The notes below the pieces were generated by a model, which was given only the letters and a program-made list of their open reading frames with translations, had not been told where the DNA came from and did no database searches. Both the position numbers and the translations under genes were made by a program. A stretch of 64,000 nucleotides of DNA from a virus (taxonomy: Duplodnaviria > Caudoviricetes): IMG/VR virus record IMGVR_UViG_3300013121_000013, positions 64,001 to 128,000 of that record; one strand, 5' to 3'. Positions 37,223 to 53,679 of this stretch are shown piece after piece. Within the stretch, counting starts at the first letter, position 1; each line of letters starts with the position of its first letter.

Positions 37223-38521
37223 ATGATGAGTAGCGACAATATAAAGCTACAAGATTTCCTAGAGATTGTAAAAAACAATCCTAGTTATAACTTAGGTATC
37301 AAAGATAACAAAGCTGAAGTGGACGATTCTGGAAATATAACTTGTTCTTTCCCGTGTAGATCGGACAACGGTTTAACAGAAAGCCATAGAGTCACTATCA
37401 CACCAAAAGGAAGACTTCACTTTTGGAACCACTCTATAGAAGAGTTAGAGGCTATAATTGCCGTAGAGCTGCTATCATTATCAAATAAAAATACAAATCG
37501 TCAACACTACCACCAGTGTAGATATAATCGAAGGAAAAAAGAAGGTAAGGACCTTCATAAACCAAACAAAAAAGAAAAAATCTCTCTAGCTGGAAGCTCC
37601 GCTTGTAACTGTGCATGTATTTTATATTCGTGGAGGACCGGCCTAGATACTGGTGTTTGCCTTCCTATAATATTAGAAAGGCTACATATAGATAATATTA
37701 TCTTTAAACAGTCGTGTATTCGAAAAAGGTGGCTAAATAAAAAGAAAGCTAATATTTTCTCTGTAGATATAAATTGTAACCTTAAAGATATAAATCAAGT
37801 TTTATATGCATACAAAGCAACAGACGACTCCGTTAAAGATTTTGTCCTTAGGCTACAAGATATTTTTAATTCTGATTTTGGTCTAAAGTCTACAACTAAA
37901 AAACATTACGACAATTCGATTGACATAGTGTTTAAAAATAAAAGCACAGGTTGGTGTTTAAATATTAAAAACGGATTCAATATGGGAGATTTTCATTTTC
38001 TAACAAAGAGTGGCGGGTATCAAAGTTTATTCTGCAATCCTTTAGTTGTGTCTATAAGATCAACTAATGTTAAGACTGAAAATTTTCTAAAAGATACTAT
38101 GGTAGGAAAATATCGTAATTATTTTGAAAAGCCATCTGTTTATGTGTATAAAGCTTCGACTAGTTATACAAGTCTAGACCTTAATTACATAGTAGCTGCG
38201 TTTATGTCTATGCACAATGGTCATTGTTCTACAGATATAAATATAAAATCAAGGAAACGGTATGTCGATAAAGTTATAGATCTAAGTAAGAAACTTACAA
38301 CTGATTTCAACTTTGACAAGTATAGAGGATTAAAAATAAAAGCTAAAAGAAGCGGGTCCTCTTATACAGGAATCATAACACTAAACTTTGATATGGTGTG
38401 CAGTGGTCCTAAGATGGCAGATTATCTAATGAATAAGGTTTACAAAGCATATAAAGTTTTAAGTAGATTAAAATCTATCAAAGATTCGGATTTGCTACCA
38501 TGGGAACGAGAGAGTAGTTAA
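37223..38521 (+). CDS. C-H-H-C domain family protein 1
   Basis: C...HRVTITPKGRLHFWNH...CNCAC; start moved past the terminator to GAGGAG-ATG. Confidence 0.55.
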   Translation: MMSSDNIKLQDFLEIVKNNPSYNLGIKDNKAEVDDSGNITCSFPCRSDNGLTESHRVTITPKGRLHFWNHSIEELEAIIAVELLSLSNKNTNRQHYHQCRYNRRKKEGKDLHKPNKKEKISLAGSSACNCACILYSWRTGLDTGVCLPIILERLHIDNIIFKQSCIRKRWLNKKKANIFSVDINCNLKDINQVLYAYKATDDSVKDFVLRLQDIFNSDFGLKSTTKKHYDNSIDIVFKNKSTGWCLNIKNGFNMGDFHFLTKSGGYQSLFCNPLVVSIRSTNVKTENFLKDTMVGKYRNYFEKPSVYVYKASTSYTSLDLNYIVAAFMSMHNGHCSTDINIKSRKRYVDKVIDLSKKLTTDFNFDKYRGLKIKAKRSGSSYTGIITLNFDMVCSGPKMADYLMNKVYKAYKVLSRLKSIKDSDLLPWERESS

Positions 38522-39823
38522 GTGCTAAAAAGAGATTTCAAGGTATATGTATTAAATCCTGACGTGCATATAGATAAAGCAAATGATTCATCCAATTACA
38601 ACTCATATAAATATAGAATGAAAGATTGCAAGTTGAGAAAGGATTGCGATGGACATAAAATTACAATAAATGGCTGCGGTCCATGGAAGTTCCATAATCA
38701 CACCAAAGAAGGGTTAGATAGTTCGCTCCTTATGATGGCTATGGGAAGCGAATATGATTTATGCAGTTCTATCTATCTTTTAATGTCAAGGCGATGTAGA
38801 ACTCAAGAGAATAAAGACTTTGAAATATTAGTTCCTGATGGCTGGTATCATCATGATAATTTTATCTTTTCAACCGATTTAGAGAGTAGTGAATTTATTA
38901 AATTATATACAGGTTTACATTTGCTAAAGAGAATAAGGAGAAATTCCAGACCTTCAGGATCAGACTCTAGTAAGTATTCGGTCGATGACTTTTTTAAAGA
39001 AAATCCTGAACACGAAAAACTTACTGGAAAACAATTCAGATCTTTATTTATAGAGAGTCTTTTGAAGAAGTTGAAGAATGAACTTATTAAAAGAAAAGTG
39101 AAAACACAACTTAACTCTATAAGTCCTAGATCATATACAAGCTCTAGAATGTATCGAATGCCGCGTACCTACGGCAGGGCTTATGCTGTAACTCGTCTTA
39201 GATTTACCAGAAAAGGTAACGGCACATTTCTTGATGCAATAGATTGTTCTCCAGATCCTAGACAAGATACATACTACAAGACCGCTAAACAACTAAGGGA
39301 GCTTGAGGCCGAAGATAAAAATAACAGGGATATAACTAAAATTATATTTATGTTATCTGGCCTAACAAATTCAAGAAATAGACTAGTAGATTCAGCAGAC
39401 AGTATACAGCTTGTTGGACCATTTTTAGACGAAAAAACAATCGATATTAGTTATCTAGCTACATGTCTTGAAGCAGCTTGGTTTCAAAGTATATGTAATA
39501 AACTATATGGACCTGGCACTAAGATAGAAAGAATTAATTCTTGTATACAAGATGAAATTAAAAATATGGTTAAGAACAGGTCTCTTAATATGTCTGTAGA
39601 ATCGAGCTTAAAACAAAGATACACTTATCTACCTTACAGTACCCAGTCTACAGGTAATGTTCGCTCTATTCGTAAAATGGAAAAGGTCAGAGAACAGTTC
39701 AGTACAAATATAAGAATCAGCCTTAATTTTGATATTAAAGATATAGAGCATGACTGTCAGAGAATTAAAACTATGTTGAAACAGTTTATTTTGGAATACG
39801 ACAAGGTTAAAAAATTAAAATAA
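38522..39823 (+). CDS. C-H-H-C domain family protein 2
   Basis: CDGHKITINGCGPWKFHNH...MAMG...C. Confidence 0.55.
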   Translation: MLKRDFKVYVLNPDVHIDKANDSSNYNSYKYRMKDCKLRKDCDGHKITINGCGPWKFHNHTKEGLDSSLLMMAMGSEYDLCSSIYLLMSRRCRTQENKDFEILVPDGWYHHDNFIFSTDLESSEFIKLYTGLHLLKRIRRNSRPSGSDSSKYSVDDFFKENPEHEKLTGKQFRSLFIESLLKKLKNELIKRKVKTQLNSISPRSYTSSRMYRMPRTYGRAYAVTRLRFTRKGNGTFLDAIDCSPDPRQDTYYKTAKQLRELEAEDKNNRDITKIIFMLSGLTNSRNRLVDSADSIQLVGPFLDEKTIDISYLATCLEAAWFQSICNKLYGPGTKIERINSCIQDEIKNMVKNRSLNMSVESSLKQRYTYLPYSTQSTGNVRSIRKMEKVREQFSTNIRISLNFDIKDIEHDCQRIKTMLKQFILEYDKVKKLK

Positions 39824-39840
39824 GGAATTAGAATTAGGTA

Positions 39841-52345: not shown

Positions 52346-53363
52346 TGAATATATTTATTTCTATAAGTCTAGCTCTGCTTTCGTTAAAGACTGTGACGGA
52401 AAGCATAAAGACTTGATGCAATATTTAAAATCTAGACACTCTATTAGAGGTCTACCCAGATCTCAGAGATCTGAAGTTGTTGAGTCTATAACTGTTGAGT
52501 GCGGTAAAGAGAAGTGCCAGCACTTTGTTTCTAGAAAAAAGAACGGTCGATTAGTACTGGTCAATCACAAGAACTTTCTTAAAGAAGAAAGAGTATTATA
52601 CGCACTTGGTGACAGAAGTTGTACATGTGTGTCAGTACTTGAAAAAGTTAAGAACTTGCCTTCAAAAGGGCCTTTAACAGACAACTCTCTATCAGAGATG
52701 ATTTCTGAGATGTATAAGATACAAGATTTAAGAAAGCGTACACGCCAATCATATCTTATAGATTCAGATAATTGTTCAGATCTTAGCGATCCTCTGAAGT
52801 TATCGTTGATGTGTAGGGCGGCTTTGACATCGGTCTCTGCTGCAACAATGGCTTTTTCTAAATTTTGTTATCCGTATGTAGATGAGAATACAGATGTAGA
52901 ATTTTACTCTATTGTTATGTCTAGTGAGATACCTCTAGATAGCGAAAAGACTAATCATTATGCTATTTCATTTAAAAGTCTTAAAAAAGACAATACAATT
53001 AACTTAACCAAGGATGGTATAGTCTCGGTCGTACGCTCATATAAAGTTAATAGTAGAAAAACCAGTCAATACAATTGCCCAGAATCTGCTTCTACAGTTT
53101 TTATATTAATTGATCCTATGCTATATTTTTGGACTAAGAAGATTGGATTTTCTTCTATAAATCAAAATCTAGTTCTACATTACATTTCACAATATAGAAA
53201 AAGAGACGAAATTATATATGAGCTGGTTGTATTGAAGCCAGAAAGAAGAGGTCAAGAATTTAATCCGTGGGTGGCTACAGTTAAGTCTAACGGAAGTAAA
53301 CTGTATGACCTTCAGTTCGTAAAGAGAGTAAAGAGATATAGAGATGTCGTTAAACCCAGATAA
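52152..53363 (+). CDS. C-H-H-C domain family protein 7 (start uncertain, possibly 52416)
   Basis: CGKEKCQHFVSRKKNGRLVLVNH...ERVLYALGDRSCTC. Confidence 0.55.
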   Translation: MQKREKNKHRLTFKDAWPRQLMHSSENLQKRVKMSSSVSPGYLNVNCMDLLKRSSKLWNATWIDNEYIYFYKSSSAFVKDCDGKHKDLMQYLKSRHSIRGLPRSQRSEVVESITVECGKEKCQHFVSRKKNGRLVLVNHKNFLKEERVLYALGDRSCTCVSVLEKVKNLPSKGPLTDNSLSEMISEMYKIQDLRKRTRQSYLIDSDNCSDLSDPLKLSLMCRAALTSVSAATMAFSKFCYPYVDENTDVEFYSIVMSSEIPLDSEKTNHYAISFKSLKKDNTINLTKDGIVSVVRSYKVNSRKTSQYNCPESASTVFILIDPMLYFWTKKIGFSSINQNLVLHYISQYRKRDEIIYELVVLKPERRGQEFNPWVATVKSNGSKLYDLQFVKRVKRYRDVVKPR

Positions 53364-53679
53364 TATTTTTGAACAACATGGTTCGTTATTTCCAACTTGT
53401 AAAGTATTTAAAATTGTTGTTAGGTGTGTAGGAGGAGAGGAACACTTTATAATCGTAGATCTAGAGAATAATAAGTTATCGTTTGTAGATCATCCAGATA
53501 TGGGTGAGGACTTACTAAACAGAGAAAAAGTATTATCTTCATTAAGTGGAGAACCACTTAATGGTTGTTTCTTGGCTTACAAATCCTGGCTAGAGGACGA
53601 TCCAGATTCGTCACCGGTTGCCTTACGTCCTCATGTGCTATCTAAAATATATACAGGACTACCGAAGATAATAATTTAG
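53344..53679 (+). CDS. C-H-H-C domain family protein 8 (stand-alone domain)
   Basis: CVGGEEHFIIV...LSFVDH...EKVLSSLSGEPLNGCF..W. Confidence 0.55.
   Translation: MSLNPDNIFEQHGSLFPTCKVFKIVVRCVGGEEHFIIVDLENNKLSFVDHPDMGEDLLNREKVLSSLSGEPLNGCFLAYKSWLEDDPDSSPVALRPHVLSKIYTGLPKIII

Follow-up and report, generated by a model that had tools for sequence, protein, structure and literature searches.

The window analysed here (64,000 nt) comprises bases 64001–128000 of virus record IMGVR_UViG_3300013121_000013, a single sequence of 155,646 bp. Between 34 and 56 kb it carries a nucleotide-metabolism and replication module that lies entirely on the + strand and includes genes for a class II ribonucleotide reductase (RNR), a GP88-family protein, a dCTP deaminase, an HldE-like kinase/nucleotidyltransferase, ThyX, Mre11/SbcD and Rad50. 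Packed head to tail with these core genes are eight open reading frames (ORFs), all open and on the + strand, whose products have in common an N-terminal domain of about 65 amino acids (aa) with conserved residues in the order Cys, His, His, Cys (the CHHC domain). That this is a new, probably zinc-stabilised N-terminal domain family with 12 copies in the genome, and that its commonest form is tied to genes for a MoxR-type ATPase and a zincin-vWA protein, is well supported; the role proposed for it below is more tentative. No close relative of the virus was found among GenBank phages, and a megablast search with the region gave zero matches. Metagenome assemblies hold near-identical strains (99.3%) as well as more distant relatives.

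Twelve CHHC genes in one phage genome

Pairwise BLAST comparisons among the eight ORFs returned weak similarities, every time on the same segment. When these segments are aligned, the two His residues and the final Cys are invariant, and the first Cys is present in 8/8. Profiles built with one member left out recovered the omitted member from the six-frame translation of the genome in each case (E 8e-10 to 6e-3), so a first-pass annotation of this DNA was right to propose that the eight share one homologous domain, beyond what chance would give. It had also described the family as one of eight genes, and here the profile search that it suggested gave a different answer. The eight-member profile found four extra copies, at genome 21669–22529 and 22514–23044 (both E ~1e-8), 149876–150265 (E 1.4e-5) and 91946–92287 (window 27946–28287; E 5.6e-5), followed by a clean gap to E=1, and homologues extend to 323 clusters of public proteins. 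Exactly the same 12 ORFs were returned by a profile made from 149 non-self database homologues alone (E 1e-16 to 8e-5; next match 0.46). Nine of the twelve members lie inside the window, and the genes of all twelve add up to about 9.8 kb (6.3% of the genome). The copies show no DNA-level repeats, as had been noted at first pass, and the domains of the paralogues are just 17–36% identical, indicating that the duplications are old.

Comparison with a 99.3%-identical strain gave 21 nonsynonymous and 21 synonymous differences in the CHHC genes, versus 18 and 63, respectively, in the remaining genes (Fisher p=0.002). The CHHC genes are real and constrained, being under relaxed purifying selection, but their proteins change about three times faster. 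Chance ORFs were considered as an origin of the family and rejected, since the profile statistics and the surplus of synonymous changes both speak against them.

The window copies share the strand of the core genes, and gaps are ≤30 nt or junctions overlap; this co-oriented, tight layout suggests that they may be co-transcribed with the core genes. A scan with the sigma-70 consensus found promoter-like sites no more frequently than in shuffled sequence, and the sole strong signal is a terminator-like hairpin before the first copy (Table 1). The ORF of gene 1 is open from a TTG at 37172, which is an unlikely start because it falls within this hairpin; the ATG at 37223, chosen in the earlier reading, is better. 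The ORF of gene 7 extends upstream to 52152, into the end of the Mre11 gene, and the database gene call begins further downstream.

Two of the copies separate Mre11 from Rad50. The gene upstream of them does match SbcD/Mre11, as had been claimed, and in three related viral contigs (Mre11 37–38% identical) the two genes are contiguous, with Rad50 starting at the Mre11 end, whereas here 1.36 kb holding the two CHHC genes stands between them. A more distant relative (GP88 41%, dCTP deaminase 53% identical) carries a single CHHC gene of 409 aa (P0140), directly after the deaminase gene; from RNR to the same downstream marker, there are five CHHC copies in the present phage versus one in that relative. 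Another relative has one copy, directly after GP88. The single copies in relatives imply that one or a few copies are old residents of the module and that the others were added in this lineage. Judging from gene order, a related phage carries a positional counterpart of the copy that follows the dCTP deaminase gene, and the tail of that copy may have diverged past recognition rather than been swapped.

Table 1. CHHC genes and associated features. Coordinates are those of the window unless marked genome; the latter lie outside the window.
Feature	Coordinates	Strand	Remarks
Ninth in-window CHHC copy, 105 aa	27973..28290	+	Ser replaces first Cys
Terminator-like hairpin	37174..37209	+	Perfect 16–17-bp stem and T-run; directly upstream of CHHC gene 1
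CHHC gene 1	37223..38521	+	Domain ~37322–37654, with ~45-aa insert; tail ~290 aa, no detectable homologue
CHHC gene 2, 433 aa	38522..39823	+	Domain ~38606–38806; tail without detectable homologue
CHHC gene 3, 125 aa	40567..40944	+	Nearly bare domain, ~40579–40767
CHHC gene 4, 401 aa	40944..42149	+	Domain ~41100–41318; start overlaps gene 3 stop; tail without detectable homologue
CHHC gene 5, 463 aa	43001..44392	+	Domain ~43112–43333; after dCTP deaminase gene
CHHC gene 6, 286 aa	50345..51205	+	Domain ~50483–50677; between ThyX and Mre11
Mre11/SbcD-like nuclease, core gene	51218..52345	+	SbcD/Mre11 match; abuts Rad50 in relatives
CHHC gene 7, 359 aa	52284..53363	+	Database gene call from ~52284; domain ~52479–52670
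CHHC gene 8, 111 aa	53344..53679	+	Nearly bare domain, ~53404–53604; directly before Rad50
Rad50/SbcC-like ATPase, core gene	53710..55854	+	
MoxR-type AAA_5 ATPase	genome 20629–21705		phrog_1297 match 9e-50
CHHC operon copy 1, 275 aa	genome 21705–22532		
CHHC operon copy 2	genome 22514–23047		
Zincin-vWA protein (DUF2201_N+DUF2201)	genome 23031–24446		phrog_1314 match 7e-52

The ninth in-window copy closes a stretch (window 24525–28290) that encodes a classic AAA ATPase (536 aa), a DUF3150 protein (344 aa), a DUF1257 protein (105 aa) and two small ORFs, and this may be a second ATPase-linked CHHC locus. The short copy near the genome end (149894–150268, L002) has a 108-aa counterpart (P0039) in a different phage contig (L024 3049–3375), and the two have a C-terminal KFE.V..DG.RWEVEYEVI stretch in common; this conserved counterpart indicates that this bare-domain form, at least, is stably inherited.

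A conserved GP88-family (DUF7227-like) protein (window 39841–40554; L026 8609–9346) adjoins CHHC genes both in this phage and in two relatives. The phage-encoded HldE-like protein (window 47669–49171) joins a PfkB sugar kinase to a cytidylyltransferase-like domain, a composition that suggests synthesis of activated heptose or a similar sugar nucleotide. In relatives of the phage, the terminase and RNR genes contain inteins with LAGLIDADG domains (L026 1–100; P0154 contig).

The CHHC domain and its tails

A profile search of public data (1.84 billion representative proteins) found 323 clusters, defined at 50% identity, at E≤1e-3, and 23 at E≤1e-10. Among the best 150 matches, the domain starts at or before residue 40 in 87%, the median protein length is 256 aa, and 10 proteins hold two or three copies of the domain, several as two tandem units. 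Many family members are bare domains of 75–125 aa, and two of the window ORFs, at 40567 (125 aa) and 53344 (111 aa), are indeed nearly bare domains, as first described. At metagenomic locus L014 (108–2944), two adjacent genes encode two CHHC units apiece, and at L016 (1076–1699) a second CHHC copy is split across two reading frames, possibly by a frameshift.

Over 159 domain segments, the four ligand positions are conserved at 98% (C), 99% (H), 100% (H) and 100% (C), with a spacing of about C-x4-6-H-x13-20-H-x17-25-C that extends across three strands and two helices. An extra Cys two residues before the last one (C-x-C) occurs in 75% of these segments, and the other conserved positions are a Gly, a Leu-Gly-Gly and a Trp-Arg. 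In ORF 37223, the ~45-aa insert precedes the LAG...C-x-C part of the domain. AlphaFold2 applied to the alignment of the 12 paralogues gave a confident fold (pLDDT 90.8) in which three strands are followed by two helices joined by a loop. In the model, the first Cys lies at the end of strand 1, the first His at the start of strand 2, the second His where strand 3 meets helix 1, and the last Cys at the start of helix 2. The four residues most likely hold one structural zinc ion, and their near-invariance fits the metal site proposed for them in the first-pass annotation.

No description of the family was found in the libraries or literature searched, consistent with the earlier failure to recognise a named family. 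The eight window proteins gave no credible match in Pfam (best E 0.018) or in PHROGs, where P0005, P0036 and P0140 likewise had none, and 150 family representatives have no Pfam family in common and contain no helix-turn-helix (HTH) or other nucleic-acid-binding domain. NCBIfam and PADLOC returned chance-level matches only, and the PDB neither a sequence match (profiles A4 and A6) nor a clear fold match. Two typical members compared by tblastn with 50,697 GenBank phages gave no match, a word-indexed search for longer fused forms found none, and some of the family-query scans of genome contigs and viral contigs were without a match. A shape search of the ESM Atlas gave, as a lead only, TM values of 0.61–0.63 to three clusters of Actinomycetota hypothetical proteins without a Pfam family; searching the Atlas by sequence features with two window proteins yielded nothing usable. 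In the literature searched on bpMoxR, DUF2201 and CHHC with phage, nothing relevant was found except one paper (PMC7824862).

In a homing scenario, the CHHC genes would be selfish elements and the domain a degenerate nuclease of the His-Me (HNH-like) kind, which allows the genes to insert between core genes. Their position wedged amid core genes, with two of them splitting Mre11 from Rad50, would suit such elements, and the domain does have a beta hairpin followed by a helix, a conserved His and an N/D-His pair. However, no member has an HNH, GIY-YIG or LAGLIDADG match in Pfam or PHROGs, and the invariant set, Cys/His/His/Cys, is of the kind seen in structural sites and includes neither an acidic nor an Asn catalytic residue. 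The abundance of bare-domain members, the lack of any presence/absence difference between the two near-identical strains, and the low identity of the paralogues without DNA-level repeats, which makes their spread old, also argue in the other direction, and a homing origin appears highly improbable.

In the window proteins, the tails that follow the domain are mutually dissimilar at the sequence level, as the first reading had it. Comparison of the window tails with each other by BLASTP, HHalign and jackhmmer showed no link, and comparison with the main C-domain family or with a second tail family (P0045/P0064/P0140 type) gave nothing significant, the best case being ORF 43001 against the second family (HHalign E 0.025, hmmsearch E 0.22). 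The tail of ORF 43001 returned itself alone from a word-indexed set of 5.8 billion proteins. Across the family, one tail family accounts for 54 of 133 tails (tails of ≥60 aa); its consensus has a basic helical stretch (LP..L, Arg-rich, DPL) and then a beta-rich domain with W..VYKRGLAVVDG. The commonest form of the protein is about 250 aa long and consists of the CHHC domain, a basic helical linker (W-R...LP..L) and the beta-rich C-domain. In a 229-aa member, modelled at pLDDT 93.8, the CHHC domain is followed by two long helices and then by a domain with about seven strands. One copy in this phage, the 275-aa protein encoded at genome 21705–22532, belongs to the main tail family (E 3e-7, HHalign probability 87%). 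In several window proteins, too, the domain is directly followed by the W-R...LP..L and basic-helix pattern, so homology probably extends past the 65-aa core. The commonest form is probably the older one.

Neighbourhood of a MoxR ATPase and a zincin-vWA protein

Two of the CHHC genes outside the window lie in an operon with the order MoxR, CHHC, CHHC, zincin-vWA, in which every junction overlaps (loci L018, L001, L017; Table 1). Both a zincin signature (HExxH...H) and the MIDAS motif of a vWA domain are conserved in the DUF2201 protein over 60 homologues. Its family, phrog_1314, is labelled 'HNH endonuclease' in PHROGs and in GenBank records that copy the label; this looks wrong because the conserved motifs are HExxH and vWA MIDAS. 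Prediction of a complex between the zincin-vWA protein and the 275-aa operon CHHC protein, run without controls, gave scores of 0.00, 0.37 and 0.00, which speak neither for nor against binding.

Five further loci with the commonest form of the family (L003, L005, L013, L014, L016) have AAA_5/bpMoxR, DUF2201 or both within ~5 kb. These foreign loci are of very different base composition, and their gene order and orientation vary. In all, 6/6 examined loci with the commonest form have MoxR, zincin-vWA or both within that distance, and the DUF2201 protein is matched by 45 of 50,697 GenBank phage records (E≤1e-10), a frequency that places 6/6 above the background rate. A location in the same operon or neighbourhood, as expected of a third component of the pair, was thus found for the copies at genome 21705–23047 and for the five foreign loci, and not for the eight window copies.

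The explanation we favour, though tentatively and at somewhat short of an even chance, is a lineage-specific expansion in which the zinc-stabilised CHHC domain is a handle to one partner, most plausibly the MoxR/vWA-peptidase machine, while the tails diversify. The family consists of phage and mobile-element proteins expanded in this lineage, with diverged copies placed by the phage among its genes for nucleotide metabolism and replication. Through the conserved domain, all paralogues would meet the same partner, possibly as clients, adaptors or substrates of the MoxR/vWA-peptidase machine, and the fast-evolving tails would assign each copy a different job by determining what gets delivered, processed or regulated. 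A common handle is the most economical model because no part other than the N-terminal domain is shared by all paralogues and the copies that look oldest are inside the MoxR/vWA operon. Docking on a common partner was one of the options raised in the first-pass annotation; it gains from the finding that older-looking members adjoin MoxR and zincin-vWA, the operon of this genome included, while the identity of the partner is a reading of gene neighbourhood. The other option raised there, effectors for anti-defence or host takeover, gained no support here. In other settings, MoxR/vWA systems remodel particular clients or insert metals into them (CbbQ/O, NorQ/D, CoxD/E, chelatases), which would fit a client bearing a conserved metal site.

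Several observations weigh against this explanation. The eight window copies, 37–54 kb into the window, are far from the MoxR/vWA genes, and the ninth carries Ser at the position of the first Cys. The window tails matched nothing, so that their different jobs are purely inferred. At the three closest DUF2201 loci examined, no CHHC gene occurs within 7 kb, and other small genes lie between the two partner genes. The pair can evidently work without the family, and the linkage could reflect shared element ancestry instead of a functional tie.

Small Cys/His domains very often bind nucleic acid, and CHHC proteins could be nucleic-acid-binding zinc-finger proteins that serve as phage regulators or DNA-metabolism accessory factors, with DNA or RNA bound by the domain together with the basic helices that follow it, and with a purely modular linkage to MoxR/vWA. 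The presence of eight copies among the genes for RNR, dCTP deaminase, ThyX, Mre11 and Rad50 would suit such a role, as would the two long helices right after the domain in the full-length model, where the family consensus is rich in Arg and Lys. On the other side, the 150 representatives contain no HTH or other nucleic-acid-binding domain and the recurrent MoxR/vWA neighbourhood would be left unexplained, so we consider this role rather unlikely.

A constant N-terminus with variable C-termini is also the layout of packaged internal proteins. The N-terminal domain might then be an addressing or pro-domain of virion-targeted or processed cargo, recognised while heads or tails are assembled, with the zincin-vWA protein carrying out the processing and the tails entering the host. 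The location of the genes is at odds with this, as they sit in a replication and nucleotide-metabolism module and not with structural genes, and members of the commonest form occur also in integrated elements beside primase- and helicase-type genes; a cleavage motif was not identified. Group 2.2 jumbo phages carry a MoxR and peptidase-vWA pair, and its proposed role there, virion assembly with peptidolytic processing (PMC7824862), would agree with cargo of this kind. On balance, we judge virion cargo quite improbable.

A stricter version of the handle is that the CHHC domain is a dedicated recognition tag engaging the client set of the MoxR/zincin-vWA machine, with twelve clients in this phage. 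We regard it as unlikely; if true, it would be a client-addressing system of a viral AAA+ chaperone-protease, and the pair would gain identifiable substrates. Under the favoured explanation, an expanded family docking on one partner, the CHHC proteins would form a candidate client or adaptor class for the MoxR and peptidase-vWA pair, which is common in large phages and mobile elements. The use of about 6% of a genome for twelve diverged copies among core replication genes is unusual and points to a many-target function.

Comparison with known systems

The nearest known system is the phage MoxR and zincin-vWA pair (phrog_1297 and phrog_1314), which is encoded here with the two most typical CHHC genes between the partner genes. 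Descriptions of this pair do not include the CHHC family, however, which is absent at 3/3 of the closest loci examined, and the eight window copies are dispersed away from the pair. A similar layout, in which a MoxR ATPase and a vWA protein are joined by a third protein that diversifies, is found in the vWA-MoxR 'ternary' conflict systems with VMAP proteins, reportedly described by Kaur, Burroughs, Iyer and Aravind in 2020. Those systems belong to multicellular bacteria whereas the CHHC case is in a phage, and no VMAP or other Pfam domain was found in CHHC proteins (150 representatives).

The U11-48K-type CHHC zinc finger (zf-U11-48K) has the same ligand order of Cys, His, His, Cys. It is a short, closely spaced motif of about 25 aa, whereas the ligand spacing of the phage family is several times longer, and hmmscan gave no match of CHHC proteins to this Pfam family. 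The SWIM zinc finger (C-x-C-xn-C-x-H) differs in ligand order and likewise has no Pfam match in CHHC proteins.

The internal proteins of phage T4 and other phage multigene families also occur as several copies in one genome and combine a conserved N-terminal module with unrelated or fast-diverging C-termini. In T4, targeting depends on a short peptide that is removed by the prohead protease, in contrast to the predicted folded Cys/His domain of the CHHC proteins. As kinds, small Cys/His handles and third components of MoxR/vWA systems are already known, while the CHHC domain and its fold appear to be new.

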